Notes under the pieces: model-generated
The model's input: the letters and a program-made list of their open reading frames with translations, nothing else
Told to the model about the DNA's origin: nothing
Database searches by the model: none
Assembly: GCA_964373925.1 (NCBI GenBank)
Contig: CAYJWS010000003.1
Coordinates: 1-43,715 of the forward strand
Origin: an uncultured Gammaproteobacteria bacterium
GTDB lineage: Bacteria > Patescibacteriota > Patescibacteriia > Buchananbacterales > GWA2-38-13
Length of the DNA stretch: 43,715 nt
Direction: 5' to 3'
Program-made: the position numbers and the translations under genes
Shown: one piece after another, positions 9,686 through 40,395 of the stretch
Layout of the letters: each line of letters starts with the position of its first letter
Position numbering within the stretch: the first letter of the stretch is position 1

Positions 9686-9689
9686 ATGT

Positions 9690-10700
9690 TTACACGTTTT
9701 GTAAAAATGAAAGAGGCTTTGTGAGCGCTCGCGAAAGCGTTTTTTTATGTGAAACGAGGGCTTGCCTATTTTGTATTTTTCTTGGATCAACAAGAGCTAT
9801 TTTTTTTCCTTCAATAACGCTCCAGGAATGTGTGTCGTGCTTTGAGCGCACCCATAAGCCTATTTCTCGTAAAGAAAAATAAAGTATCATAACTGGAACA
9901 AGTTTTTTGAAGAGCGAACCATTCTGTATTTTTGCCATATATTCTTTCAAAAAGTCTTTTCTCCATTCGGGATTTTTCCATGTTTGTATCCATAAAAAAC
10001 ATGGATCAAATGCCATATTATCAACGTGGCATTGCTCCCAATCCATAAGATAAATTTTTTTATCCGTTCCCAAGATGTGGTTTGAAAGCGCTGTGTCGCC
10101 GTGTGCTAGCACGAGATGCTTTTTTAAAAGTGCTGCACTCCTTTGTATTTTTTGTATAGCGATATTATAAGTTTTTTGCGGTATCGTCTCTAGGATTTCT
10201 GATTTGAAGCCTTCGAGTAGGCTTACATAATATGGCGCAAGGCGCGTCCGCAATGTTTCGTCTATTTTTTTTACATGTAAAGCGGGGATTTTTTGCAGCT
10301 CCGCGATATTGTGCGCAAATTGTTTAATATATATTTTTTTATCCGCGCCTACCGTAAAATCAAAATACAGCCCGCACGGTTTTCCCGGTATGAATTCAAG
10401 CAATATCCATGTTGAGTTTTTAGAAATTTTTGAATGAGCGAGTTTTTGCGTGTTGAGTTTTTTATAAATCTGAATTTTTTTCAAGAAACGATTGAAATGG
10501 ATTTCGCGCGCAAGCCTGTATTTTTCGCTCCCCGCCAAAAGGCCCTTGAACATATATTTTCTGCCAGCGCGGTCTTTGCACGGAGTCGTATACCATCGCC
10601 GCCTAAGTTGGATATGTTCTTTTGGAGGTATTGAAGGCGCGAGATTGAGTTGCTTGAGCTCGTGCGTGAATATTTCCCGAATGCCCGGTATCATTTCCAT
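9690..10700 (-). CDS. Aminoglycoside-phosphotransferase-fold (APH/choline-kinase-like) kinase, possibly a sugar kinase
   Basis: Catalytic loop LAHGDTALSNHIL (H-x-D-x4-N) and metal-binding motif YLMDWEQ, as in the APH/ChoK/NahK/maltokinase fold. Overlaps the stop of the upstream GT4 gene by 10 nt. Confidence 0.65.
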   Translation of the reverse strand: MEMIPGIREIFTHELKQLNLAPSIPPKEHIQLRRRWYTTPCKDRAGRKYMFKGLLAGSEKYRLAREIHFNRFLKKIQIYKKLNTQKLAHSKISKNSTWILLEFIPGKPCGLYFDFTVGADKKIYIKQFAHNIAELQKIPALHVKKIDETLRTRLAPYYVSLLEGFKSEILETIPQKTYNIAIQKIQRSAALLKKHLVLAHGDTALSNHILGTDKKIYLMDWEQCHVDNMAFDPCFLWIQTWKNPEWRKDFLKEYMAKIQNGSLFKKLVPVMILYFSLREIGLWVRSKHDTHSWSVIEGKKIALVDPRKIQNRQALVSHKKTLSRALTKPLSFLQNV

Positions 10701-25144: not shown

Positions 25145-26956
25145 ATGACCGCTGGAAATTTTTTCTACAATTTTTTTGGAACCATAATTTTTCTATTTCT
25201 TTTTTTGATTATGATATATGTCGTTGCCATCATTCAAAAAAAGAATTTAGTAAGTTTTATGAAAGGATTTTTTCTTCATAAATCTTCAGGGGTAAATCTG
25301 GCAGTTTTTCGGATAGCTGTTTTTTTTAGTATTTTATTTCTCGTTCCAAAAAAGGCGACATGGATGACTCTTTTGCCGAATGATTTTTTTCGTCCGCCGC
25401 CGGGTACGTCTTGGTTCGCGCAGTTTTTACCGCTAGATAGCGGTACTATTTCTGTGGCAACATTTTTATTTATACTATTTTCGGTGATGGCTATGGTTGG
25501 ATTTTTTTCAAGAACCTCGGCGTTCTTTGCTTTTTTATTGGGATTATATGTTTTAGGACTGCCACAGTTTTATGGCAAGGTAAGCCATGACACACATCAT
25601 CTCATTTGGTTTTCAGCGCTTTTAGCTGTTTCTCCATGCGGTGATATGTTTTCTCTTGATGCTGTTATTCGCGCTTGGAGGCGCCCAGAGGGGTATCGAG
25701 CCACCTTATCTTCATTATCTATCAAGCATGGAGCGCCAATCCGTTTTGCGTGGGCGCTTTTTGGGATTATCTATTTTTTTCCCGGACTATGGAAGTTAAC
25801 AACATATCAGACATGGATTTTTGGAGAAAGCGTCCGTCAGCATACTTATTTGGCGTGGATTTTTCAGGATATTGCACGGCCATTTTTTCGCTTTGATTAT
25901 TATCCAATACTCTATAGATCGATTGGCGCGGCTACTATACTCTTTGAATTAATTTTTTTATTTTTTATTTTTTTTAAGCCAACTCGTATTTTTATGGCGA
26001 TTTTTGGAATATTTTTTCATCTCTCTATTTATGTATTTATGGGTATTAATTTTTTACCACTTATCGCATGTTATGTGATATTTTTTGATTGGGAAAAAAT
26101 TTTTAAGAATATTGGAAAATTTATATTTAAAAATAAAGTATATTTTTTATATGATGGTAAGTGTCGAGTATGCAGAAAAACAATTGCCATAATACTTTCG
26201 CTTGACGTGCTACAGCAAATAGTTCCGATTGATCTTTATGATCAAGAATCTCAAAAGCACCATCACTTGCCCTTCATTGATCGAAACATTCTTTTAGAAG
26301 AGTTGCATTGTATTTTGAAAGAAAAAAGATTTAAAGGGTTCTACGCATATCAGGTCTTGGCGTTTCGCATTCCTTTTTTTTGGTGCATCCTTCCATTATT
26401 ACATGTCTCGTACGTGGAGAAGGCGGGAAAGGCGATATATAATCGAGTTGCAAAAAATCGAACATGCGAAATTGGGCTAGTTGATGCGGGAGTTATAAAT
26501 ATATCGCCAACACGCGATTATTTTCCAATGCAAATTTTTATTGTTTTTTTAATATTATTTATACCCAATATTTATGCCGGAGTAGGCGATATCAATTCTT
26601 GGCCATATTCTGTATACCCGACATTTCATGTATCTGACGATGACTTTCGGGAGGATGTTATGAATATCCGCGTATTTGATAATGATGGGAAAGAAATTGC
26701 CATAGATCTTAAGCCGATGAAACAAAAACTTGGTTTTGTAGACGTTCGATGGCTTGAGCGAGATCTTATTTTTATTCGCGATAAAGACGCACAGCAATAT
26801 TATATCAAAAAATATCTTGAAGTACTTAATACATTTAACGTGGTGCCGAAAGATGTTAAAATCATAGAATTTAGCCATGATCTTATTTGGATTGATCCAG
26901 ATAAAAAATCATTGAATCCAGTGAATAGGGATACTCTACTTAAGGTTTCTTTATAA
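25145..26956 (+). CDS. HTTM-domain (vitamin-K-carboxylase-like membrane domain) protein fused to a DCC-family thiol-disulfide oxidoreductase domain and a C-terminal soluble domain
   Basis: HTTM-like NLAVFRIAVFFSILFL, GFFSRTSAFFAF and LAVSPCGDMFSLDAV. DCC/DUF393 motif FLYDGKCRVCRKT (DGxCxxC). 603 aa. Confidence 0.65.
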   Translation: MTAGNFFYNFFGTIIFLFLFLIMIYVVAIIQKKNLVSFMKGFFLHKSSGVNLAVFRIAVFFSILFLVPKKATWMTLLPNDFFRPPPGTSWFAQFLPLDSGTISVATFLFILFSVMAMVGFFSRTSAFFAFLLGLYVLGLPQFYGKVSHDTHHLIWFSALLAVSPCGDMFSLDAVIRAWRRPEGYRATLSSLSIKHGAPIRFAWALFGIIYFFPGLWKLTTYQTWIFGESVRQHTYLAWIFQDIARPFFRFDYYPILYRSIGAATILFELIFLFFIFFKPTRIFMAIFGIFFHLSIYVFMGINFLPLIACYVIFFDWEKIFKNIGKFIFKNKVYFLYDGKCRVCRKTIAIILSLDVLQQIVPIDLYDQESQKHHHLPFIDRNILLEELHCILKEKRFKGFYAYQVLAFRIPFFWCILPLLHVSYVEKAGKAIYNRVAKNRTCEIGLVDAGVINISPTRDYFPMQIFIVFLILFIPNIYAGVGDINSWPYSVYPTFHVSDDDFREDVMNIRVFDNDGKEIAIDLKPMKQKLGFVDVRWLERDLIFIRDKDAQQYYIKKYLEVLNTFNVVPKDVKIIEFSHDLIWIDPDKKSLNPVNRDTLLKVSL

Positions 26957-29122: not shown

Positions 29123-29578
29123 TTACGTAATGCCGTTAAAAAAAAGGCACCATCCCGAATACGAGCTCACGGCGCATGTAATGCTTAGGAGGACATATCT
29201 TGTAATCGCGTACGACGCAAAAATTATAACAATGCCGACTATGCCGTTTCGAAGTATTCCCTTCCCTTTATTCACCTGGTCTTCCTCTCCCTTCGCCATC
29301 ATCCAAGTATATCCACCGTACACGATAAGAATAAAAAATATAATAGTGAGAATCAGTATGAATATCCTAATAATTGTTGCGGCAATAATTCTAATGTCTT
29401 GCGGAACGCCTGTAGGATACCCAAACGCCTGTCCAACTGGTTTTATCATCTGAAACATACCGTCCCAGATGTTTCGCTCTGGAGCTTGTGCTACAACATG
29501 TTGCGTGGGTGATAAGAGTGCCAGGAGAAAAAAAATAAAAAATTGTATAAAAAATTTATAAACCTTACTTTTTTTCAT
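29123..29578 (-). CDS. VirB2/TrbC-like (T4SS-pilin-type) small membrane protein, paralog P1
   Basis: Signal peptide ending VVAQA, then two TM helices flanking the conserved loop GGYTWMMAKGEEDQVNKGKGILRNGIVGIVIIFASYAI. Confidence 0.75.
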   Translation of the reverse strand: MKKSKVYKFFIQFFIFFLLALLSPTQHVVAQAPERNIWDGMFQMIKPVGQAFGYPTGVPQDIRIIAATIIRIFILILTIIFFILIVYGGYTWMMAKGEEDQVNKGKGILRNGIVGIVIIFASYAITRYVLLSITCAVSSYSGWCLFFNGIT

Positions 29579-29642
29579 AGTAAATATTTATATTTCATTA
29601 TAAACATTATATCATACTTTTTCGATAAAAAAGTAATAACTA

Positions 29643-29671
29643 TTGACATAATAATAATTTTATGGTATATT
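29643..29671 (+). promoter_or_regulatory. Sigma70-type promoter of the lipoprotein gene
   Basis: TTGACA at 29643-29648, a 17-nt spacer ending in TGg (extended -10), and TATATT at 29666-29671. AGGAG Shine-Dalgarno at 29722-29726, 6 nt before the ATG at 29733. Confidence 0.55.
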
Positions 29672-29732
29672 TGAATATCGGATTGTTCTTTACTTTTTTA
29701 GCAACAAAAAGCCCATTTTTTAGGAGATTTTT

Positions 29733-30254
29733 ATGAAGGTCACAACGTTTTCTTGCTTTGTAATAATTGGTTGTGTTTTCTTGAATGGTTGCTACTACGC
29801 CCAGCTCTTTGACGGTAAGGCTCAATTTAGCGGTCAGGCAATTCCTGCCTCGGTTCTAGAGCTTGTGGAAGCGCAAAGGCTTCAGTCGTTCACACAAGAG
29901 CAGGTCGCGGCTCTTCATGAGCTACAGGAACCCCAGAAGCGATCCCGACAAGATGTCTATGAAGACGCGACGTTTATTCAGACGCTTATGGATGGGCGAT
30001 ATGCTTCTGGAACCATTTCAAACAGAATAAACGAAGGCATCACGCTTGATATTTTTGAGCAAGATGACGATGGCAATAAGAGTAGGTTCGTCCAGCGGCT
30101 CTATCTCGGTCCTCGCGAAAAGATTTCCTATTTGCTTGAAAATGGCAAGAAATACATTTTTGAGTATTGGGAAAAAAATTTCGTCCACCCCAAGACCTGG
30201 AAGTTTCAAAACCCAGCACAAAGAGGCTGGGTGTGCGCATACGCACCGGCGTAG
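29733..30254 (+). CDS. Hypothetical lipoprotein
   Basis: Signal peptide with lipobox-like FLNGC (MKVTTFSCFVIIGCVFLNGCYY). Has its own promoter, SD and terminator. Visibly GC-richer than its neighbours. No recognisable domain. Confidence 0.65.
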   Translation: MKVTTFSCFVIIGCVFLNGCYYAQLFDGKAQFSGQAIPASVLELVEAQRLQSFTQEQVAALHELQEPQKRSRQDVYEDATFIQTLMDGRYASGTISNRINEGITLDIFEQDDDGNKSRFVQRLYLGPREKISYLLENGKKYIFEYWEKNFVHPKTWKFQNPAQRGWVCAYAPA

Positions 30255-30268
30255 CGTAATACAAAAAA

Positions 30269-30305
30269 GCGTTCCGAACTTTCAGTCGGAACGCTTTTCT
30301 TTTTG
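30269..30305 (+). terminator. Rho-independent terminator of the lipoprotein gene
   Basis: gcgttccga (30269-30277), 8-nt loop, tcggaacgc (30286-30294), then ttttcttttt. Confidence 0.7.
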
Positions 30306-30337
30306 TATATAATTTGAGACTATAGAAAAAGTAAAAT

Positions 30338-30439
30338 TGTCATTCCCCCGAACGCTTTCGGGGGAATCCAGATTTTTCGCCGAAACTTGTGGATCCCCGC
30401 TGGAGTTTACCCTCATAAAAATGGGGGCGAGGATGACAA
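30338..30439. repeat. Composite palindromic repeat, copy C (three hairpins closed by TGTCAT(T)CC / GGATGACA)
   Basis: tgtcattcccccgaacgctttcgggggaatcca...tggatccccgctggagtttaccctcataaaaatgggggcgaggatgacaa. It is the inverted counterpart of copy F at 41173-41273. Confidence 0.85.
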
Positions 30440-30458
30440 CAGATAAACTATACTATAT

Positions 30459-30890
30459 TTATGGGCCAGTTGGCGTGCCTTGCCCGTTGGTGGATAGCCA
30501 GTAGAGCACAAAATAGGCGATGGCGTAGGATGATAGGGTTATAATAAGCCCTATGATAGAGTGCCTAATTATTCCTCGTGCTCTATCTATCTCATTATCG
30601 TTTCCTCTGGCCATCATCCACACATATCCTCCAAAGAAAATAAGTCCTAAAAATACTATGGCAAGCACCGAGAGAAATGCTTGAATGACGGTTGCGACAA
30701 GTCCTGGCAGAGAGATGGGTTGAAATCCGATTTTTCCTATGAAGCTGTTAACTTTATTGTTGATATTTGACCCCAGTTCTTCTTTAAAAACAGGATTTTG
30801 CTGGGCGCTGATTGCTATAATGTTCGCGAACAATACGGAAGAAACAATGGCGCCGTTTTGAATATATTTTTTTACGTTTTTTATTTTCAT
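30459..30890 (-). CDS. VirB2/TrbC-like pilin-type protein, paralog P2
   Basis: Signal peptide ending AISAQQ. Loop GGYVWMMARGNDNEIDRARGIIRHSIIGLIITLSSYAI. Confidence 0.75.
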   Translation of the reverse strand: MKIKNVKKYIQNGAIVSSVLFANIIAISAQQNPVFKEELGSNINNKVNSFIGKIGFQPISLPGLVATVIQAFLSVLAIVFLGLIFFGGYVWMMARGNDNEIDRARGIIRHSIIGLIITLSSYAIAYFVLYWLSTNGQGTPTGP

Positions 30891-30899
30891 AAATATTTT

Positions 30900-31295
30900 T
30901 TATGGAGCCTGCGGAGCGAAAAAGATGCTACTCACCAAGAGCCAAATACTATATGACGCCGTAAGCACCACAAGCCCGATAATAGCGTCTTTGATTATTT
31001 TTTTTGCCTTATCTACCTCATTATCGTTCCCCCTCGCCATCATCCACACATATCCGCCGTATATTATAAGAATAATAAAAAGTATTCCAAGAAACGATAC
31101 AATAGTAAAGACCACTGTTCCGAGTGTTTCCGTAAATATAGTGTCCGGGTCTACATCGGTATTAAATCCTGCGCCATCAGCTACGCCGTTGAGCAGGGGA
31201 TTATTATTTAATGGATTTGCGGCAAATATCACCGATGGCAAGAGGATAAACGCCAAAAGGGATAGAAAAGCGGTTATTTTTATTTTTTGTATCAT
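30900..31295 (-). CDS. VirB2/TrbC-like pilin-type protein, paralog P3
   Basis: Start set at the ATG at 31295 (MIQKIKITAFLSLLAFILLPSVIFAANP), 4 nt after the P4 stop, giving 131 aa. Loop GGYVWMMARGNDNEVDKAKKIIKDAIIGLVVLTASYSI. Confidence 0.75.
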   Translation of the reverse strand: MIQKIKITAFLSLLAFILLPSVIFAANPLNNNPLLNGVADGAGFNTDVDPDTIFTETLGTVVFTIVSFLGILFIILIIYGGYVWMMARGNDNEVDKAKKIIKDAIIGLVVLTASYSIWLLVSSIFFAPQAP

Positions 31296-31299
31296 ATAT

Positions 31300-31722
31300 T
31301 TATTCTTGGAAAAGTCCGGCGCCAGATATAAGTGTTCCGATAAGGCGCGTGAGCGCGTACGCCATGCCGACAATAACAACCCCAATAATAGAAGTTTTAA
31401 GAATTGCCTGCGCTTTTTCAACCTGGCTTTCATTTCCCTTGGCAGTCATCCAAAGAAATCCGGCATAGATAATGAGAATAATAAATATAACCCCAGTAAA
31501 TGCCAATGCAGAGCCGATAATTTGTCCGATAATCGTTCCCACCCTTTGTTGGGCGTCGTTTGGATCGGAGGTGTCAACGGGAACCATGCCAAGACCTTCC
31601 GCAATACGATGGAGCCTATTAAGCATCTTATCTTCTTCTTGCGCGTATGTTCTTCGCGCAAAAAATACGGTTGTTGCGGTTACGAGAATAGAGGAAGAAT
31701 AGTAATATATTTTTTTAAGCAT
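31300..31722 (-). CDS. VirB2/TrbC-like pilin-type protein, paralog P4
   Basis: Signal-like N-terminus ending TYAQEE. Loop AGFLWMTAKGNESQVEKAQAILKTSIIGVVIVGMAYAL. Confidence 0.72.
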   Translation of the reverse strand: MLKKIYYYSSSILVTATTVFFARRTYAQEEDKMLNRLHRIAEGLGMVPVDTSDPNDAQQRVGTIIGQIIGSALAFTGVIFIILIIYAGFLWMTAKGNESQVEKAQAILKTSIIGVVIVGMAYALTRLIGTLISGAGLFQE

Positions 31723-31726
31723 AGAA

Positions 31727-32092
31727 TTACGCGGACCTAATGAGTGTTACGATTAATACGGTAATAAGATATGACGTTAAGACTATTATTATGCCAATAG
31801 CGGAGCTGATAATAATCTTTTTTGCTTTATCCACCTTGCTGTCATTTCCCGCCGCTGTCATCCACATAATACCCCCCCATATCATGAGAATAAAGAATAC
31901 GACCGCCAAAAAACCAAAGAGTTTTTCAAGGATTTGCCCGATAAAAAATTCCGGATCATCATTATTGCTCACATCAAGCGCGAGCCACCCGATATTTTGT
32001 TTCATCTTGTCAATAAGGCTTTGTGTCTGCGCGAAAACAGATTGAGGCAGAAAAAGTGTGATAAAGGTAACGAGAGTGAGAATACTATACAT
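31727..32092 (-). CDS. VirB2/TrbC-like pilin-type protein, paralog P5
   Basis: Start set at the ATG at 32092 (MYSILTLVTFITLFLPQSVFAQTQ), giving 121 aa. Loop GGIMWMTAAGNDSKVDKAKKIIISSAIGIIIVLTSYLI. Confidence 0.75.
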   Translation of the reverse strand: MYSILTLVTFITLFLPQSVFAQTQSLIDKMKQNIGWLALDVSNNDDPEFFIGQILEKLFGFLAVVFFILMIWGGIMWMTAAGNDSKVDKAKKIIISSAIGIIIVLTSYLITVLIVTLIRSA

Positions 32093-32096
32093 AGTG

Positions 32097-32639
32097 CTAC
32101 GGCGCCTCGGGCGCAAAGCTGTTAAGAATAAAGAATGTGATAACTTGCGAGAGAAGTATTATGGTAATGCCAATAGCGGAGCTGATAATAATCTTTTTTG
32201 CCTTATCCACCTTGCTGTCGTTTCCCGCCGCCGTCATCCACATAATACCCCCCCAGATCATGAGAAGCAAAAACACAACCCCAAGAAGCGTGAGAAGGGT
32301 ATTGATATAAGATCCTATCTGCACAAAAACAAGCTTGCTCGCCAGTTCAGGCGAAAGATCGCCGCTCGGATTGATAAGCTCGGCTTTTGTTGCCGTGTCT
32401 TTTGCGCTGTTGAAAAATTTGGTTGAAAGTGATTTTTTGTCTTTGGTTTGCGCTGCCACGTTAAGTACAAATAAAAAATTATAAAGCGCAAACGATCCAA
32501 TGCCAAAAGCGATTTTTTTTAATCCGCCAGCTGGCGGACGAGTCATTGGTTTAATGAAGCGTAGCGAGCTTTGGAAAAAGAGTCTAAGGCGAGCTTTGGG
32601 GACTATACTTGTTTGATTTTTTAAAAAAAAGGATTTCAT
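32097..32639 (-). CDS. VirB2/TrbC-like pilin-type protein, paralog P6
   Basis: Loop GGIMWMTAAGNDSKVDKAKKIIISSAIGITIILLSQVI. The start is ambiguous: either the ATG at 32639 (ATGA overlap with the P7 stop) or the ATG at 32546. Confidence 0.7.
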   Translation of the reverse strand: MKSFFLKNQTSIVPKARLRLFFQSSLRFIKPMTRPPAGGLKKIAFGIGSFALYNFLFVLNVAAQTKDKKSLSTKFFNSAKDTATKAELINPSGDLSPELASKLVFVQIGSYINTLLTLLGVVFLLLMIWGGIMWMTAAGNDSKVDKAKKIIISSAIGITIILLSQVITFFILNSFAPEAP

Positions 32640-33025
32640 GGTTTTTCAAACTGGGATATTACGCCTCCAACAAGAGCTGTGATGGCGTATGAGAAAAATA
32701 CGATGGCAATGCCTATAAATGCGGCAACCAAAAGTCCTTTTGCTCGAGTTATCCTTTGATCATTTCCCGCCGCCGTCATCCACATGACTCCTCCGACAAT
32801 CATAAGAATAAGAAATACCGTTCCAAGAATACCCAGGCCATATCCAACAACGCTTCCGGCAAGGCTTGAGAGGTCGTCGGTGCGAATCCCCGCCTCTCCA
32901 GCGGTATCCTCAAGCCCAGTTTTATCCACGGTTAGAGGCTGGGGCTTTTCTTGCGCCAATACTCCAAGAGGAGCGATGAGTACGAATAGCAATGCTACAA
33001 TAATACTCAATTTTTGCATCTTCAT
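32636..33025 (-). CDS. VirB2/TrbC-like pilin-type protein, paralog P7
   Basis: Signal peptide ending GVLAQE. Loop GGVMWMTAAGNDQRITRAKGLLVAAFIGIAIVFFSYAI. Confidence 0.75.
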   Translation of the reverse strand: MKMQKLSIIVALLFVLIAPLGVLAQEKPQPLTVDKTGLEDTAGEAGIRTDDLSSLAGSVVGYGLGILGTVFLILMIVGGVMWMTAAGNDQRITRAKGLLVAAFIGIAIVFFSYAITALVGGVISQFEKP

Positions 33026-33157
33026 ATTTTTCGATATATATCTCTATGTATTATATCACTCAATACGCAGGGATAAAGAGCGAAAGATTCTATATAAGGG
33101 AGACCTTATCAGCTAAAGTCTCCCCTATAATCAGTCGAGCTGAAGTAATGCAAATCT

Positions 33158-33529
33158 TTATGTTCCGGTTACGTTTACCAATGATCGTACAACGAATGTT
33201 GCTATGGCGTACGATGTAAATATAACTGCCATGCCAACGATTCCCGCGATAATAAGTTTTTTGGCTTCTGCGATTTTGTCTTCGTTTCCTCCGGCTGTCA
33301 TCCATTTGAAGCCTCCAGCCAGCACTATAATAATTGCGATAATGCTTAAGAATCCCAAAATAACATTGATAACCAAGAAAATAACCTCTCTAATATCTCG
33401 TGTTCCAAGTCCTGTAAATGTTCCATAGTTCAATCCTGTATTTACCTGTTCTGCTAAGTTAACTGCTAATGCCGGCAATGCGGCAAACATACTGCCCACT
33501 GCTGTTATACCAGCTGCAATTTTTTTCAT
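33158..33529 (-). CDS. VirB2/TrbC-like pilin-type protein, paralog P8
   Basis: Signal peptide ending ALPALA. Loop GGFKWMTAGGNEDKIAEAKKLIIAGIVGMAVIFTSYAI. Strong SD (GGGAGGTG) upstream of the ATG and its own 153-nt upstream spacer. Confidence 0.75.
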   Translation of the reverse strand: MKKIAAGITAVGSMFAALPALAVNLAEQVNTGLNYGTFTGLGTRDIREVIFLVINVILGFLSIIAIIIVLAGGFKWMTAGGNEDKIAEAKKLIIAGIVGMAVIFTSYAIATFVVRSLVNVTGT

Positions 33530-33682
33530 TGTTTTTCACCTCCCTTCGTTTATGATCTTAGATTTAAAATTTCAGCCAAAGGTAGATTTGCCTCGGTCTG
33601 AAGTCTTAAGTCTTTATCTGATTTAATTATAATAATTTTAAGCGCCTACGTCAATGTTGATATCTTTTTATTGCATTTTCTC

Positions 33683-34309
33683 TTATTTTGGCGCTTTTGG
33701 CGGTATTGTAATATCTTCACCTTGGAAGATTTTTGCATTTTTTCCAATATCTCCTTTTCCTCCGGTGAGCGTTAGAACTAAAAAATTAATGATAATCCAC
33801 GAGGTAAAAAGTATTATCATGCCAACGGTTGCGTTTGAGAGAATGGTTTTACCCTTATTTACGCGGTCCGAGTGTCCTGCAGATATCATAAACATCACGC
33901 CTCCATACACAAACATGATAAGCGCCGCGCTTCCTACTACGCCAAACATTATGCGGGTGATATTTACCAAGGTCAGTATTATTTCATTTATGCCGCAGTC
34001 TGTTTTTGTGGCCTGCCTTCCTTCCCGGCAGCCGGAAGGTATAAGTTCTTGTCCGCTTAGGACTTTTGTCACCCAGGATTGTTTTGTTTGATTTAGTTCA
34101 TCCGGATTTTTTTCAAGATCGGAGCAAGACTGCGCGGTGCCGACAGCCAGCATATCAGCCGGGCACGAAGGATCGGGATTGTCAAAGCATCGGCTATAGT
34201 CTATCGCGCAGCAGCAATTGGCGGCACGAGAGGCGCTTGGGAAAAATAAGAACGCGAGAATAAAAACTGTTATGCATGCAAAAAATATCTTTTTTATGAT
34301 TATGTTCAT
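33683..34309 (-). CDS. VirB2/TrbC-like pilin-type protein with a Cys-rich N-terminal ectodomain, paralog P9
   Basis: Signal peptide ending SASRAAN, followed by a roughly 85-aa region with 8 Cys (NCCCAIDYSRCFDNPDPSCPADM...SCSD...GCREG...DCG). Divergent loop GGVMFMISAGHSDRVNKGKTILSNATVGMIILFTSWII. Confidence 0.65.
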   Translation of the reverse strand: MNIIIKKIFFACITVFILAFLFFPSASRAANCCCAIDYSRCFDNPDPSCPADMLAVGTAQSCSDLEKNPDELNQTKQSWVTKVLSGQELIPSGCREGRQATKTDCGINEIILTLVNITRIMFGVVGSAALIMFVYGGVMFMISAGHSDRVNKGKTILSNATVGMIILFTSWIIINFLVLTLTGGKGDIGKNAKIFQGEDITIPPKAPK

Positions 34310-34318
34310 GATAAATAA

Positions 34319-35704
34319 TTATTCCGCAAAAGCGTTAAGGGTTTGCTGAACGCGAGCATTGGCAATTTCAATACTTTCCTTTACGTCATCCCCGGAATTT
34401 ATATGATTGATAAGATCTTTGAGAGTTTGTTCCGCTGTGTTAAAATCAAGACCCCTATACCATGTTTCTGATGTTAAGAGTTGAGAAGCAAACACGCTCA
34501 ACGTTTCATTTTGAAGTTCATCTTGGACCAAAGATCGAAGAGCCGTGGGCTTTAATGTCTTTTCAAGATATTTTTTAGCCTGCTCGGCTCTTGTAATGAA
34601 AAGGATAAAATCCCAAGCTTCATTTGGATTTTTTGTTCTTGACGACACGGCGTCCACCCAGTAGTTTGCCATATTCGTTTCTTGGCTTCCTTGAATTTGC
34701 GGCATCTTAGAAATTCCGAAGTTAATGGCGTTTTTGCTGTATGCTTTTATAAAAGGAATATCATGGGCGTAGCCGAAGTACATGGCGAGCTTGCCGTCGG
34801 CAAACGCCTTGAGAGAATCGGGCATTTCGTTGTTCCATGTGTATACTTCTTTTCTTGGGTTGGCAAAGTCCGTGTAAAATTTTAAAGCCTCTATGCCCGG
34901 ATTGTATTCTTTAGCCTGCGTTCTGGAAAAAAGAGTCGCGCCCCCGGAAATTATGGTCGCCCCGTTTTGTCTCATAAGGAGAGTGAGTATATCCGCGCTT
35001 CTTCTTATATTGTCCGCAGTCCCAAGTGCGGCTCCCGCCTGTACAATATTTTTTTTCTCGTCAAAAAAAGTTGTTTTTTTAACCGCCTCCTGAAATTCCT
35101 GCCAATTGGTAGGAGGAAGCGGGACGCGAGCTTTATTAAGCAGATCTCTATTATAGAACAAGACCATAGTATCAAGGCTTAGGGGCACTCCATAAATTTT
35201 TTTGTTTATCACCACGTCATTGGAAACGGTTCCCAAAAAATCATCTTTGAGTTTTGTGGGCGTGAGGGTGGGATTGGTACGAAGCTCGGTGAGCACTTCT
35301 TTTTTTATGCCCAAGCTTGTTTTTTCGAACTGATACGCCATGGTTGTTTTTTCGGGCATTGGCTGGATAAATTCTTTTTTGGCGTATTTTTGAAGCCAGC
35401 CGTAATGAAGCGAAATAATATCGGGCGGCTTGAGTTGCGCGAATGATTCTAAGAGCCGCTTCTCATACTCTTCATACCTTAGCTTTACCACGCTGATTGT
35501 GATGTTGGGATGAAGCGCCTTGTATTTTGCGATAAGCTCGCTAAAATCATTTTGCGCGTCCCATACCTGCCAGTACACGAGATCAACCGGTTTGAGGAGT
35601 TGCTGCACCTCTCTTGATTTGATCCATGTACAGCGAAAGCCAGTGCTTACCATGAGAATCCCAAAAAGAAATAAAATTTTTAATTTTGTTTTTGGATGTA
35701 TCAT
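34319..35704 (-). CDS. Extracellular solute-binding protein (ABC-transporter family 1, sugar-type) without adjacent permease or ATPase genes
   Basis: 461 aa with an N-terminal hydrophobic anchor. Typical family-1 SBP features (VYWQVWD..., PDIISLHYGWLQKYAKKEFIQPMP, aromatic-rich C-terminal half). Confidence 0.8.
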   Translation of the reverse strand: MIHPKTKLKILFLFGILMVSTGFRCTWIKSREVQQLLKPVDLVYWQVWDAQNDFSELIAKYKALHPNITISVVKLRYEEYEKRLLESFAQLKPPDIISLHYGWLQKYAKKEFIQPMPEKTTMAYQFEKTSLGIKKEVLTELRTNPTLTPTKLKDDFLGTVSNDVVINKKIYGVPLSLDTMVLFYNRDLLNKARVPLPPTNWQEFQEAVKKTTFFDEKKNIVQAGAALGTADNIRRSADILTLLMRQNGATIISGGATLFSRTQAKEYNPGIEALKFYTDFANPRKEVYTWNNEMPDSLKAFADGKLAMYFGYAHDIPFIKAYSKNAINFGISKMPQIQGSQETNMANYWVDAVSSRTKNPNEAWDFILFITRAEQAKKYLEKTLKPTALRSLVQDELQNETLSVFASQLLTSETWYRGLDFNTAEQTLKDLINHINSGDDVKESIEIANARVQQTLNAFAE

Positions 35705-35720: not shown

Positions 35721-36587
35721 TTATATTATTTTTTGTATATATTTTCTGAGCTCATCTTTCACCCCTACGTCTTTTAATCCAAGCTCAACATTTGCCTTAA
35801 GCCAGCCGAGCTTTGAGCCTAAATCAAGATACTCGCCATTAATAATTTTTGCGTAAATAGTTCGCTTTTTTAGCATTAAGGAAATAGCATCCACAAGCCA
35901 AAGCTCATTATTCTTGCCAATCTTTGTTTTTTCTAGCGCTTCAAAAATGTCGTATGTAAAAATATATCCACCCAAAGAAGCTATGCGCGAAGGAGCTTTT
36001 TTCGGTCCGGGCTTTTCTATAACAGAATCTACTCTGTAAATTCCCGTTTCAATTTTTTCTCCGTCAATAATCCCGTATTTTTTTGTGCCGGAGTCATCGG
36101 TCATCATGGCGGTAATCACAGGCTCCTCGTATTTTTCGTATACTTCAATGAGCTGTTTGAGCTGTGGTTTTTTCGGGCAGTTCCATATATCATCTCCCCA
36201 CACCACTGCAAACGGCTCTCGGCCGATAATATGCTTGGCATTGAGTACTGGGGTGCCGTTGCCATACGGACCCTTTTGCCTGATATAGATGAAATTGGCA
36301 AGCTTTGAAATAGTTCTGATTTTTTCAGCATAGTCTTCTTTGCCTGATTCCCTCAGCCATTTTTCAAGATACTCGTCTCGGTCAAAATGGTCTTCAATGG
36401 CGCGTTTGGTTTTGCCAGTGACAAGGATAATATCTTCAATTCCGGATTCCACGGCGCTCTCTATTATATATTGTATGATAGGCTTATCAACAATGGGAAG
36501 CATTTCCTTGGGCTGGGCTTTGGTAGCCGGCAAAAAGCGAGTGCCGAGTCCTGCCACAGGGATGACAAGTTTTCGGATTTTAGACAT
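35721..36587 (-). CDS. galU: UTP--glucose-1-phosphate uridylyltransferase
   Basis: KLVIPVAGLGTRFLPATKAQPKEMLPIVDKPIIQYIIESAVESGIEDIILVTG is a canonical GalU N-terminus. 288 aa. Confidence 0.92.
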   Translation of the reverse strand: MSKIRKLVIPVAGLGTRFLPATKAQPKEMLPIVDKPIIQYIIESAVESGIEDIILVTGKTKRAIEDHFDRDEYLEKWLRESGKEDYAEKIRTISKLANFIYIRQKGPYGNGTPVLNAKHIIGREPFAVVWGDDIWNCPKKPQLKQLIEVYEKYEEPVITAMMTDDSGTKKYGIIDGEKIETGIYRVDSVIEKPGPKKAPSRIASLGGYIFTYDIFEALEKTKIGKNNELWLVDAISLMLKKRTIYAKIINGEYLDLGSKLGWLKANVELGLKDVGVKDELRKYIQKII

Positions 36588-36613
36588 TGAGATTAAAGAT
36601 TTAATTTGTAAGA

Positions 36614-36658
36614 TTTTCCCGAAGGCTTTCGGGAATCCGCCTTTGGCGGAAAGGATTT
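36614..36658. repeat. Double-hairpin repeat D (TCCCGAAGGCTTTCGGGA + TCCGCCTTTGGCGGA)
   Basis: Hairpins at 36617-36634 and 36636-36650. The 24-nt atccgcctttggcggaaaggattt (36635-36658) recurs inverted at 37086-37109 with one mismatch. Confidence 0.75.
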
Positions 36659-36782
36659 AAGTTATTTTTTGTGATTTTTAAGAAGTGATCGTTCTAATCC
36701 ATAAAACATTTTTGAACATTCGATATATTTTTTCTGAAAATGTTTGGAAATATTGATATTGAGACCGTAAAAATAGTAATAT

Positions 36783-36877
36783 TGTCATTCCCCCGAACGC
36801 TTTCGGGAGAATCCAGTAGATTGATATACTTCATTTTTTCAGATCCCCCGATAGCCATCGGGGATGTGGGATGACAG
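36783..36877. repeat. Composite palindromic repeat, copy E
   Basis: tgtcattcccccgaacgctttcgggagaatccag...agatcccccgatagccatcggggatgtgggatgacag. Confidence 0.8.
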
Positions 36878-37085
36878 TTTTTATAGCCTTATGTTATATC
36901 ATGAATCTCTAAGGCAAGCTTAAATAATTTTTTATATACCTCTAAATCTGAGAAAATCATTGAAAATTATTCACTTTAATTTTAAACCCTTAATCTTAAA
37001 TCTATTATGATTATAACATAAAAGTTGAAAAAAGAGGAGCAATATGGTAATTTTGAGTAGATTCGTGGTTAGATAAATATAGCAT

Positions 37086-37109
37086 AAATCTTTTCCGCCA
37101 AAGGCGGAT
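37086..37109. repeat. Inverted copy (D') of the 24-nt segment of repeat D
   Basis: aaatcttttccgccaaaggcggat is the reverse complement of 36635-36658, with 23/24 identity. Confidence 0.75.
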
Positions 37110-37149
37110 GCGCCTGGGGAGCACACCCTGGGCGGAAATGTATTTAGAT

Positions 37150-37413
37150 ATGTTCTACGTTTATATTATTTACAGTCATAAAATAAAGAAATGTTATAAG
37201 GGATCAACTATTGATTTACGAAGAAGGATTTCTGATCACAATAACGGCAATGTTCGTTCGACTAAGTTTGGAATGCCTTGGCATTTACTATACTATGAGG
37301 GTTTTAAAAATAAAGTTTATTGTCGTAGGGAGGAGTTATTTTTAAAATCAGGAAATGGTCGCGATAGAATAAAGTATCTTTTAAATGAAACACTTAAAGA
37401 AATAAAACGTTGA
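37150..37413 (+). CDS. GIY-YIG nuclease-family protein (stand-alone, about 87 aa)
   Basis: FYVYIIYSHKIKKCYKGSTIDLRRRISDHNNG...W.LLYYEGF....RREELFLKSG matches the GIY-YIG/UPF0213 pattern. Start set at the ATG at 37150, because the longer track ORF begins inside repeat D'. Confidence 0.78.
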   Translation: MFYVYIIYSHKIKKCYKGSTIDLRRRISDHNNGNVRSTKFGMPWHLLYYEGFKNKVYCRREELFLKSGNGRDRIKYLLNETLKEIKR

Positions 37414-37448
37414 TTTATTGATTACATAGATTTATTTAACTGAATTAT

Positions 37449-37535
37449 GGAGAGGTGCCAGAGTGGTTGAACGGGCCGCTCTCGAAAAGCGGTATGCCCG
37501 CAAGGGTATCGAGGGTTCGAATCCCTCCCTCTCCG
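37449..37535 (+). tRNA. tRNA-Ser (anticodon CGA), long variable arm, CCA not encoded
   Basis: Acceptor stem GGAGAGG/CCTCTCC. Anticodon stem-loop CCGCT-CTCGAAA-AGCGG. Variable arm TATGCCCGCAAGGGTATC. T arm GAGGG-TTCGAAT-CCCTC. Close to the remembered E. coli tRNA-Ser sequence. Confidence 0.92.
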
Positions 37536-37595
37536 ATTTTGCCAGATAATGAGTTCGCCCCATCATTCGATGGGGCGCCCCGTCGTATGACGGGG

Positions 37596-37618
37596 CGAAT
37601 CCCTCCCTCTCCGATTTT
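37596..37618 (+). repeat. 23-nt perfect direct duplicate of the tRNA-Ser 3' end (att-like scar)
   Basis: cgaatccctccctctccgatttt occurs at 37518-37540 and again at 37596-37618. The 55-nt spacer holds two GC-rich hairpins. Confidence 0.85.
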
Positions 37619-37736
37619 TAATCCTGTTAAGCTGAAAGCAGCGATTAACCAAAAAATCAAAGAGTCGCAAAAAGGAAAGATCTCAACATTTTATTTTTTT
37701 CATAACAGAGTAGATAATAATTAATTTTATACAATT

Positions 37737-38123
37737 ATGCCAGAAAAAGAATCTCAACATATTCCCCCCGAAGAGAGCGGTGAAAAAGATGAGTCGAAAA
37801 AAGCAATTGATTCCGAGGCTGAAAAAAAAGAAGATGGCCCTGAAGCAGAATTATTAAAAAATTTACGCCTGGCCGTAAGGCATACTCAATGGGAACTGGA
37901 CTCTCGAGATGCTCATTTGGAGGAAGGCATTAAAGGAAAGATGTTGGGCGGTAACTTTAATAACATAATCTTTTATCTCCGTAAGGCCGAGCGCTATGGA
38001 GAAGAAATTGATGAAATTAGTGAGTTCATAAAAAAGTCAAATGTTGATAATGTCACTTTTATTCGTGATAATATTATGAAAACTGATGAAACAACCCTGT
38101 GGCATTCTACTACTGCCGGATAG
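37737..38123 (+). CDS. Hypothetical acidic protein (N-terminal part of an ORF interrupted by an in-frame TAG)
   Basis: 128-aa ORF with an ATG start and no recognisable domain. It is in the same frame as 38199-38588, with no other stop between them. Confidence 0.5.
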   Translation: MPEKESQHIPPEESGEKDESKKAIDSEAEKKEDGPEAELLKNLRLAVRHTQWELDSRDAHLEEGIKGKMLGGNFNNIIFYLRKAERYGEEIDEISEFIKKSNVDNVTFIRDNIMKTDETTLWHSTTAG

Positions 38124-38198
38124 TCTCCTACCGCGCTTATCTCTCATTATCCATTTACAGTTTTTGGAAATTATGAGTACCCACATCCAAGTGAAGAC

Positions 38199-38588
38199 TT
38201 GCGGAAGGATGCGTATTATACTGCCTTAGGTAGGATGTGCGCGAAATATTATTCTTTGTCGGGAGGAAATCAGTACGAAAATGCAATAGGAATTTATGAA
38301 AAAATTGGCGAGGAAGATGAAGCACAAAGGTGTCAGTCTCTCTATGAACAATGGAAAGAAAAAACGGTAAGAGAGCATAATGACCAAACATTTCGAGAAG
38401 ATCAAGATCGACAATATAAAGAGTGGCAACACCATATATTCACTCATAAGCAGGACATAGTAGACGCCATGAATGAATTTATTGAGGCGACCAAGGATGG
38501 ACCATATATGGCACTTGATGTTAACAGCTACCTTGAAGCGCTGAAGATGAAACTTGAGAAAGATATTTCAGCTATGCAATCAAAATAG
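38199..38588 (+). CDS. Hypothetical protein (C-terminal part of the interrupted ORF); start uncertain
   Basis: The track ORF starts at a TTG at 38199; the first in-frame ATG is at 38235. Helical, charged sequence. Confidence 0.4.
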   Translation: MRKDAYYTALGRMCAKYYSLSGGNQYENAIGIYEKIGEEDEAQRCQSLYEQWKEKTVREHNDQTFREDQDRQYKEWQHHIFTHKQDIVDAMNEFIEATKDGPYMALDVNSYLEALKMKLEKDISAMQSK

Positions 38589-38624
38589 TTTTTAGTAATC
38601 AAACCCAATAATGCCCTACAATTC

Positions 38625-39909: not shown

Positions 39910-40395
39910 ATGAAAAAAATTCATACGCACACACCCGTATGCTTTGAGCCGACGCCGAAGTTGTTTTGCGGACACAAGCAAGGCGCCATAGGCAGCCATG
40001 GCGGATATAGAAAAGACGAAGTTTTTCAGTATCAGGAAAGCGGCGTGATGAAAGATAGCTCGCTTGCGCTTTCAGGAAAATTCTTGGCAGAGCAAGAATA
40101 TATTGAATCGCAAGAAGCCGGCGCGGAGCTTATTGTGCATTTTCACGCGACAGAGGTGAATCTTGTGATGGCGGCGCAAGGCGCACAAGCGTCCGTAGAA
40201 ATTGAATTTAACGGCGAAATACTCACAGGCGGAAATCGAGGGCGAGACGTGTCAGAAAAGGGCGAAGTGAAAATAATAAAATCCGGTTCATACAACCTGC
40301 TCACAAGCTCGGCGCTTTCGGAGGGAATATTGCGCGTACGCGCGAAACAGGGAAATTTTCAAGCATTTGCCTTTACTTTTTTGGGCTGTACTTAA
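39910..40395 (+). CDS. Hypothetical protein resembling the C-terminal beta-sandwich domain of DipZ/thioredoxin-like proteins (no thioredoxin domain present)
   Basis: The pattern ...LALSGKF...AELIVHFHATEVNLVMAAQG...VEIEFNGE...G.DV...G.V.I...SYNLL recalls the DipZ C-terminal domain. Recognition is from memory only. Confidence 0.4.
   Translation: MKKIHTHTPVCFEPTPKLFCGHKQGAIGSHGGYRKDEVFQYQESGVMKDSSLALSGKFLAEQEYIESQEAGAELIVHFHATEVNLVMAAQGAQASVEIEFNGEILTGGNRGRDVSEKGEVKIIKSGSYNLLTSSALSEGILRVRAKQGNFQAFAFTFLGCT

Follow-up and report, generated by a model that had tools for sequence, protein, structure and literature searches.

The stretch of DNA analysed in this study (43,715 nucleotides of contig CAYJWS010000003.1, hereafter referred to as the window) carries an array of nine genes for small pilin-like membrane proteins. 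According to the open reading frame (ORF) list and the sequence, these nine minus-strand ORFs, designated P1 to P9, occupy positions 29123-34309. As dnaA (at position 124) and dnaN open the window (dnaA-dnaN, 124-2889), it represents a chromosomal origin region. The array has a GC content like that of the rest of the window. It is preceded by galU and by a gene for a carbohydrate solute-binding protein (SBP). These genes are listed below in the direction of transcription, with lengths in amino acids (aa); bit scores are those for the Pfam family PF18895 (T4SS_pilin; gathering score, 26.6 bits) unless another profile is named.

35721-36587, minus strand: galU, UTP-glucose-1-phosphate uridylyltransferase (TIGR01099, 324 bits; Pfam NTP_transferase), first gene of the galU-SBP-pilin block
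34319-35704, minus strand: carbohydrate SBP of the lipoprotein type (Pfam match, SBP_bac_8/SBP_bac_1), upstream partner of the first pilin
33683-34309, minus strand: P9, 208 aa, the first pilin, with a signal peptide, a 79-aa cysteine-rich exposed head, the hairpin and a 27-aa tail; 34.7 bits
33158-33529, minus strand: P8, 123 aa, with the shortest exposed segment; 23.7 bits (cut-off 26.6); NF045849, 31.3 bits
32636-33025, minus strand: P7, 129 aa; 25.0 bits, just under the cut-off; 99 bits with a hidden Markov model (HMM) of the nine hairpins
32097-32639, minus strand: P6, 180 aa from 32639 or 149 aa from an internal ATG at 32546; 30.3 bits
31727-32092, minus strand: P5, 121 aa from the ATG at 32092, with a TTG upstream at 32116; 34.0 bits
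31300-31722, minus strand: P4, 140 aa; 26.3 bits; TrbC family PF04956, 17.3 bits
30900-31295, minus strand: P3, 131 aa; 35.9 bits
30459-30890, minus strand: P2, 143 aa, final gene of the tightly packed P7-P2 run; 28.3 bits
29123-29578, minus strand: P1, 151 aa, the detached last paralog; 29.3 bits

Hydropathy profiles showed an N-terminal hydrophobic segment and two strong transmembrane (TM) segments in all nine proteins. Cleavage sites of the A-x-A type could be read from the sequences (six proteins have A↓Q, two have AA↓N and P8 has ALA↓VN), and the combination of a type-I signal peptide with two TM helices predicts Sec export and cleavage. An AlphaFold model of P1, for which the alignment of the nine paralogs served as input, consists of one helix for the signal peptide, a short one within the exposed segment and the hairpin helices at 62-94 and 99-137 (pLDDT 84-91). 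These results confirm what the first-pass annotation of this DNA, made from the letters alone, had described, namely nine minus-strand ORFs each with a signal peptide, a variable segment and a hairpin, and the conserved-loop sequences quoted there are correct. Identity within the array averages 36% for the hairpin, 15% for the exposed segment preceding TM1 (23-79 aa) and 28% for the mature proteins, with a maximum of 47% for the latter. For P3, a longer ORF extends to 31433 and overlaps P4, and the P5 ortholog of a close relative is likewise 121 aa long. The start of P6 (32639 or 32546) is uncertain because its N-terminal insertion is missing from the closest ortholog (152 aa, at related locus L084; related loci are given as L plus a number). 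The predicted mature N-terminus is Gln in six of the nine pilins, and pyroglutamate is possible there. Proline-containing C-terminal tails are found in P2, P3, P6, P7 and P9 (APQAP, APEAP, TPTGP, PPKAPK); across 518 family members, a proline is among the last two residues in 15.6% of small pilins as against 7.2% of neighbouring non-pilin proteins. P5 and P6 have a 128-nt stretch in common (31784-31911 and 32160-32287) with 88% DNA identity and 29 identical residues across the loop, while other paralog pairs show 60-78% DNA identity; this stretch suggests a recent duplication or a gene conversion between neighbours.

A set of 80 related loci from GTDB species representatives was found using the conserved hairpin motif. 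Five hairpins were aligned for this search, the alignment of all nine paralogs being too divergent. The loci come from metagenome-assembled genomes (MAGs) labelled Falkowbacteria, Uhrbacteria, Magasanikbacteria, Parcubacteria and similar, which a published dataset places in class ABY1 (PMC12102498). The host of the window is an ABY1-class Patescibacterium, with Buchananbacteria, Uhrbacteria, Magasanikbacteria and Falkowbacteria as its nearest named relatives. The HMM of the nine hairpins recovered 523 pilin genes in 84 sources; the median over 81 related sources was 6 per locus, with a range of 1 to 14. Complete ABY1 genomes with such arrays include CP066698.1, OW818634.1 and DAIOHD010000001.1. 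A nine-gene array is thus ordinary for this clade, and the copy number, which had been called unusually high, is not, the more so as published arrays contain 2 to 11 genes (PMC12102498).

PF18895 was matched by all nine window proteins, six of them above the gathering score, and by 148 of the 149 family members scanned (nine from the window and 140 from related loci). P4, P7 and P8 fall just below the cut-off, with E values of 5e-5 or better. At an E value of 0.01 or better, the TrbC/VirB2 family PF04956 was matched by 30 of the 149 (best 1.2e-8), and NF045849, the Mbov_0395 pilin-like conjugal transfer protein of a Mycoplasma integrative and conjugative element, by 145 of them (best 2e-13), nearly end to end; the pLS20_p028 conjugation membrane protein family was matched by four. 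No window protein reached the cut-off of PF04956 (27.9 bits; best, P4 with 17.3 and P8 with 13.4) or that of NF045849 (40 bits; P8 31.3, P5 25.6, P3 23.2). As both cut-offs were missed, the window proteins are members of PF18895 and only homologs of PF04956 and NF045849. The first-pass annotation had regarded them as VirB2/T4SS_pilin-type hairpin proteins and had proposed a profile search with both families; this assignment holds for PF18895, whereas the PF04956 cut-off was not attained. Judged by these profile matches, the PF18895 pilins here appear to fit the pilin-like proteins of monoderm conjugation systems better than TrbC/VirB2, and this appears to be new. Other identities were considered and rejected. 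Weak pilin matches to DctQ, FixQ and Cyt_bd_oxida_II were taken as hydrophobic-helix noise. Type IV pilus (T4P) pilins have a class III signal peptide (G↓F/M-x-x-x-E) and a single N-terminal hydrophobic helix, but the signal peptides of all nine proteins are of the type-I A-x-A kind and are followed by two TM helices, and PilD, PilB and PilC are missing from the window. For sortase-assembled Gram-positive pilins, no LPXTG was present in the nine sequences and no sortase in the window.

The SBP gene starts 16 nt after galU, and P9 starts 9 nt after the SBP stop codon. Because of these short gaps, P9 is most likely co-transcribed with both genes. In the pilin-chosen loci, the SBP gene (460 aa) is followed by a pilin gene on the same strand at 43 of the 45 loci that carry it (median gap 9 nt), with galU directly 5' of it at 20 of these 45, and the pair is kept even where 5 kb separate it from the main array. 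As this first set had been picked through pilins, a reverse test was carried out with loci picked by the SBP. Among 80 metagenome loci (L090-L169) chosen by the SBP family alone, 71 have at least 700 nt downstream, and a PF18895-type pilin lies directly downstream on the same strand in 69 of these 71, with gaps of -56 to 210 nt. The lipobox cysteine of the SBP (Cys25) is invariant in 35 orthologs, and so are many aromatic and acidic residues. Its closest solved structures are sugar-binding proteins of ABC importers (best SmoF, 1.3e-15); an ABC permease or ATPase was found neither in the window nor recurrently in the related loci. As for the pilin, arrays in other genomes always begin with a P9-type ortholog. 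A median of 4 cysteines was counted in the first pilin to follow the SBP, as compared to 0 in other pilins, and two cysteines just before TM1 are invariant in the P9-type subfamily. Going by this gene pairing, the SBP is a conserved partner of the first pilin and not an incidental gene. It does lie beside galU, as had been described; the "orphan" protein, as it was called at the time, is paired with a pilin in 43 of 45 and 69 of 71 loci. No mention of SBP-pilin coupling was found in the main text of PMC12102498 or by a full-text search of the searchable literature, and an SBP gene directly preceding a cysteine-bearing first pilin appears to be new.

The gene order of the arrays is conserved. 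In most related genomes, a P9-type gene comes first, a P8-type second and a P7-type third (by best-match assignment), positional orthologs of these three are conserved across genera, and L061 and L015 are collinear with the window array nearly throughout. A homolog search with P9 yielded four metagenome contigs from closer relatives (L084-L087), in which P9 is 84% identical and the same nine pilins stand in identical order, together with the interposed opposite-strand gene and the DUF2079 gene. A contig similar to Buchananbacteria (L088) carries ten pilins within the same frame, and the detached position of P1 recurs in L084-L089, L061 and L075. When compared to the L084 orthologs (dS about 0.5-1.0), the exposed segments show 81-96% identity at dN/dS values of 0.02-0.22; they are as constrained as the hairpins, and the signal peptides evolve fastest. 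P8 is the most conserved paralog, with 97.6% identity to its L084 ortholog (100% in the hairpin) and 53-64% across genera. All nine genes are complete; silent partial cassettes were not seen, and the exposed parts show no diversifying change. The region has no long direct or inverted repeats and no inverted repeats suited for inversion, the only repeated sequences being the hairpin cores at 60-78% and the P5/P6 stretch; Pfam scans revealed no recombinase in it, and three independent read sets gave 99.97-100% identical sequence over 32172-35194. Runs ERR3478686, ERR4904391 and ERR4904392 contain this population; P8 had exact matches on three Logan contigs of 3 kb or less, and P9 and DnaN had none. 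As far as these alignments tell, the paralogs are old, individually maintained and non-interchangeable. A comparison across related MAGs with dN/dS had been proposed earlier; it showed conserved order and purifying selection on the exposed segments.

Across the 80 loci, the neighbours of the arrays are housekeeping and surface-glycan genes, and a few gene orders recur: galU > SBP > pilins > DUF2079 > polytopic proteins > GT2 (the window, L028, L061, L075 and L078); Wzx > Wzy_C > galU > SBP > pilins; SMC > ComM > SBP > one pilin > RodZ-like > methyltransferase ... GT2 < polytopic < six pilins, the order in which pair and main array are separated; and dnaA > dnaN > PBP (penicillin-binding protein) < (GT2 < polytopic <) pilins. 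In L026, L030, L031, L035 and L080, as in the window, arrays lie a few genes to about 30 kb from dnaA-dnaN. The hairpin is also found fused to other domains. Ig-like Big_5/TIG domains are C-terminal to it in proteins of 600-1750 aa (L036:6744-14542, L045:4130-11232, L047, L058, L060 and L062), the L008 pilins carry large cysteine-rich N-terminal domains on it, and one protein (L056:1079-2500) combines it with a C-terminal SLT lytic-transglycosylase (VirB1-like) domain. Such fusions at either hairpin end agree with an outward orientation of both termini, and they would fit a role of the hairpin as a membrane or filament module displaying other domains. Just upstream of the fused-domain pilins, signal peptidase I and hisS occur in several loci. 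In L088 (2500-5733), two extra pilin genes adjoin a gene for a 762-aa protein with a precomputed match to PF05108 (T7SS_ESX1_EccB). This gene also occurs in L089 (371-2659), where its left neighbour is lost at the contig end; its product could be an unrecognised machinery component.

The remaining features of the array and its downstream neighbour are the following, the promoter-like sites and terminator-like hairpins coming from consensus scans.

33626-33654, minus strand: promoter-like site 5' of P8 (TTGACG-17-TATAAT, 11/12; consensus scan only)
30265-30298 and 30342-30367, no strand assigned: two strong G+C-rich terminator-like hairpins between P2 and the convergent plus-strand gene, also recorded as inverted repeat I4
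29733-30254, plus strand: gene for a 173-aa secreted or lipoprotein-like protein, between P2 and P1, with its own promoter-like site
29597-29625, minus strand: promoter-like site of P1
27085-29073, minus strand: DUF2079 polytopic membrane protein (PF09852, 1.9e-53), downstream of the array, start of the glycan-synthesis region

The layout of transcription is thus galU-SBP-P9, P8 with its own promoter-like site, the P7-P2 run up to the terminator hairpins, and P1. P8 is the sole array gene having a clear Shine-Dalgarno sequence (GGGAGGTG). The intergenic gaps of -4 to +9 nt from P7 to P2 agree with the earlier description; the separate spacer that it assigned to P9 is contradicted by the 9-nt gap after the SBP stop codon. 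The plus-strand gene at 29733-30254 has no Pfam or NCBIfam match; it is kept in close relatives (81% identity, dN/dS 0.16) and has no homologs in the 80 more distant loci. It was rejected as a core part of the array, given that it matches no family and that its homologs are restricted to close relatives. In other genomes, its slot holds an unrelated opposite-strand gene. The DUF2079 gene is in the same position in L028, L061, L075, L078 and L084-L089.

Between dnaN and the array, the window carries genes for a class-A PBP, a ROK kinase, a GalT-like protein, three GT4 glycosyltransferases, ruvC and yebC, followed by three GT2 glycosyltransferases, methyltransferases, a PMT_2-type GT-C enzyme, an HTTM/DCC1 fusion and DUF2079. 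Beyond the array lie the SBP gene, galU, a GIY-YIG gene, a tRNA-Ser gene and housekeeping-type genes. Two ORFs among the glycosyltransferases (541 and 558 aa) encode polytopic proteins with 9-10 TM segments and no Pfam or PDB match. They are probably GT-C-like, and a divergent VirB6-like identity is formally still conceivable. An ORF for a soluble protein of 658 aa (7817-9793), situated between the GalT-like and APH/choline-kinase-like genes, was matched by no entry of Pfam, NCBIfam or the PDB and lacks a Walker A motif. The HTTM/DCC1 fusion (603 aa, 25145-26956) joins a polytopic HTTM domain, similar to vitamin-K-dependent carboxylase, to a DCC1-like thiol-disulfide oxidoreductase. Its neighbours are the glycosylation genes on one side and DUF2079 on the other, and the window has a thioredoxin_10 gene at 39910-40395; the fusion may be relevant to disulfide formation in the cysteine-rich head of P9. 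The stretch between galU and an HI0933-like gene (36600-38600) contains the GIY-YIG gene, tRNA-Ser(CGA) at 37448-37536 and two small unknown ORFs. Its counterpart in L084 (1100-7700) holds 23S_rRNA_IVP, an MvaI/BcnI-type restriction enzyme, a LexA-methyltransferase fusion, DUF4256, Fic/RhuM and a glyoxalase-family gene. From its gene content, this stretch looks like a small variable island.

Previous studies had reported pilin arrays of this kind. In a survey of 3035 Patescibacteria genomes, Quinonero-Coronel et al. (2025, PMC12102498) used the profiles of PF18895, PF04956 and CONJScan. VirB4 was detected in 2417 of the 3035 assemblies (including 9 of the 10 ABY1 assemblies listed from Table S1) and VirB2-like pilins in 1948 of the VirB4-positive ones, the pilin being near virB4 in only 1135. 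Arrays of 2-11 VirB2 genes occurred in 383 assemblies. Type IV secretion system (T4SS) genes were often near dnaA, and patescibacterial VirB4 nested within the monoderm MPF-FATA class. The window array is of the same kind, with tandem PF18895/PF04956 genes, sometimes one interposed non-pilin gene, a chromosomal position near dnaA and no relaxase. With nine genes, one interposed plus-strand gene and low mutual identity (28% on average and 47% at most, as compared to about 25% and 54% in the published arrays), it corresponds to an array as defined in that study. However, that study centres on virB4 neighbourhoods, with arrays most abundant in Microgenomatia and Saccharimonadia, whereas the window array is ABY1-like and not near virB4; it is also led by an SBP gene and galU, which are absent from the main text of PMC12102498.

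The six-gene array of Southlakia epibionticum ML1 (Wang et al. 2023, PMC10633639) resembles that of the window in encoding structurally similar but sequence-divergent pilins in a monoderm epibiont at an origin-proximal position (locus tags 0006-0019). It differs in that it lies inside a T4SS cluster with VirB4-, VirB3- and VirB6-like genes, and this pilin series is essential by Tn-seq (PMC10633639; PMC12857230), whereas the window has no machinery in 43.7 kb. VirB2, TrbC and TraA of diderm T4SSs share the signal peptide, the two hydrophobic helices, the short basic loop and weak PF04956 matches with the window pilins, but the window host is a monoderm with many paralogs instead of one major pilin, and neither VirB5 nor cyclisation or processing genes were seen. 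The Mbov_0395 (NF045849) and pLS20_p028 proteins are likewise small two-TM proteins, from monoderm conjugation systems; unlike the window pilins, they are single-copy on mobile elements and have neither a long exposed segment nor an SBP partner. In Bartonella and Anaplasma, which are host-dependent as well, VirB2 paralogs are also tandemly amplified and divergent. They are thought to serve antigenic variation or breadth of host range, whereas the paralog-specific parts in the window are conserved between orthologs. A metatranscriptome study counts T4SS pilins among the unknown genes with the highest expression in other Patescibacteria (PMC10936435), the possibility of a pilus in a monoderm has been raised (PMC12857230), and a recent perspective termed T4SS function in Patescibacteria completely unknown (PMC11665869).

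We favour, with moderate confidence, the explanation that the array is a chromosomal, origin-proximal operon set for nine differentiated VirB2-like pilin paralogs of a Patescibacteria-type T4SS, the hairpin proteins being substrates of a T4SS encoded elsewhere and building a pilus- or stalk-like structure. This explanation proposes that: the mature pilin would sit in the membrane as a two-helix hairpin, with its N- and C-termini outward and the basic loop (W-M-T-A-x-G-N-D/E-x-x-V-x-K-A-K) facing the cytoplasm; the T4SS (VirB4, TrsD, VirB3, VirB6) would extract subunits into the pilus- or stalk-like envelope structure, which would be used for contact with the host cell; the paralogs would be stable, specialised subunits, not interchangeable antigenic variants; P9, co-transcribed with the sugar-binding lipoprotein and with a presumably disulfide-bonded head, would be a specialised subunit working with the SBP; and P8 would likely be the major subunit, with P7 to P1 as further minor or alternative ones. 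The multi-subunit set that the first-pass annotation had envisaged is plausible in the light of positional orthology and purifying selection.

Several results weigh against this explanation. No VirB4, VirD4, VirB11, T4P, sortase, relaxase or integrase gene was detected by Pfam scans among the window ORFs of at least 100 aa, and no VirB4-like ATPase was found within 10 kb of any array in the 80 related loci, whose neighbour clusters were annotated. With no T4SS ATPase or channel gene near the arrays, it is homology, together with other classes of the phylum, that connects them to a T4SS. Of the nine proteins, three are just under the Pfam cut-off, and Foldseek gave the P1 model no significant match to solved conjugative pilins (best E value against the PDB 1.4; the 50 matches listed include no pilin), a plain helical hairpin offering too little signal. 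A search of PDB sequences with the hairpin profile returned nothing but designed "Pizza" repeat proteins, matched by way of a short motif, a spurious result. The roles of P8 and P9 are deduced from conservation and expression signals only, and, to our knowledge, no Patescibacterium of class ABY1 has been seen to bear a pilus. The absence of secretion machinery from the window had been noted before, correctly; it is not unusual, as shown by the 80 loci and by the fact that only 1135 of the 1948 published assemblies have a pilin near virB4. All unannotated ORFs of at least 350 aa with a Walker A motif in the 80 loci were scanned as VirB4 candidates and rejected, being Der, IF-2, FtsH, a DUF4143 ATPase and two T2SSE-family ATPases. 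In two of the 80 loci (L043:3460-4509 and L066:11473-12660), an ATPase of the T2SSE family (PilB/PilT/VirB11 type) is encoded just 3' of the pilin array, and no other ATPases of a secretion type were found.

It is possible, though rather unlikely, that the hairpin proteins are T4SS parts without an extended pilus, the paralogs being stoichiometric parts of one complex such as a short channel or stalk spanning the membrane or cell wall, comparable to those of monoderm conjugation systems. The closer match to NF045849 (145 of 149, plus four for pLS20_p028) than to PF04956 (30 of 149) and the position of patescibacterial VirB4 within the MPF-FATA class (PMC12102498) agree with such a structure, and a fixed gene order with purifying selection on every paralog fits an obligate multi-subunit assembly. 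However, copy numbers of 4 to 14 between related genomes are hard to square with a fixed stoichiometry, and the Ig-like extensions of 500-1600 aa in relatives suggest display well beyond the wall. The array might also work independently of any T4SS in ABY1, with the hairpins as Sec-inserted anchors or building blocks of a glycosylated envelope structure, acting with the SBP, galU and the GT2/GT-C enzymes. Although VirB4 is missing within 10 kb at all 80 loci, the SBP-pilin pair hardly ever varies, the arrays are flanked in two synteny types by galU, Wzx, Wzy_C, GT2 and polytopic GT-C-like genes and DUF2079 is a conserved downstream neighbour, we regard this as unlikely: homologous arrays in Saccharimonadia and Microgenomatia sit inside a T4SS cluster and are essential together with it (PMC12102498, PMC10633639), synteny kept in tiny genomes is weak evidence of function, and the exposed segments of P1-P8 have no N-x-S/T sequons and are not Ser/Thr-rich. 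A further and quite doubtful proposal is that the SBP and the cysteine-bearing first pilin are a two-gene module defining the purpose of the array in ABY1, namely a carbohydrate-sensing or -harvesting surface apparatus, in which the SBP would dock on or signal through a pilin structure that is perhaps assembled or glycosylated with galU, GT2 and GT-C enzymes and perhaps made without a T4SS.

Antigenic or phase variation had been put forward in the first-pass annotation and was proposed for the Bartonella and Anaplasma paralogs and suggested for Patescibacteria (PMC12102498). In the window, one expressed pilin would be swapped for alternative cassettes in order to evade host defences or to change host range. 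The paralogs do differ mostly in the exposed segment, and the P5/P6 stretch possibly reflects gene conversion. However, nine complete genes, all with signal peptides, in a region lacking long repeats, invertible segments and a recombinase, with purifying selection on the exposed segments, the same order and content in four contigs of a relative and the same sequence in three read sets, make this very improbable, and we consider it largely refuted. It is hardly credible that the array is what is left of a decayed conjugative element after loss of its transfer genes. Homology to pilin-like conjugal transfer proteins could be taken to point that way, but the location between dnaA/dnaN and housekeeping genes is common to many genera, there is no integrase, relaxase or tRNA-flanked boundary, the GC content does not deviate, and all copies are intact and under purifying selection. 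As dozens of genomes keep the synteny with housekeeping and glycan genes, without relaxase or VirB4, this possibility is refuted, in agreement with the earlier view that the array need not be a conjugation pilus.

Arrays of this kind are already published; they have been described since 2023 and were catalogued in 2025, including their copy number, divergence and separation from virB4. The role of the T4SS and of pilin arrays in Patescibacteria is an open question, and the system is essential in the one species tested. Three results from this study add interest: the near-invariant SBP-pilin pair; the purifying selection on paralog-specific segments; and the closer affinity to monoderm systems. 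The likeness to hairpin proteins of monoderm conjugation weakens the idea of a pilin borrowed from diderm systems. The stability of the paralogs points to individually conserved subunits in an ABY1-like lineage rather than variable antigens. Glycosylation by neighbouring enzymes is a possibility raised by context only, as GT2, GT-C-like, Wzx, Wzy and galU genes recur beside the arrays. Finally, the SBP coupled to the first pilin provides a concrete candidate partner of the structure, and a candidate receptor or ligand sensor.

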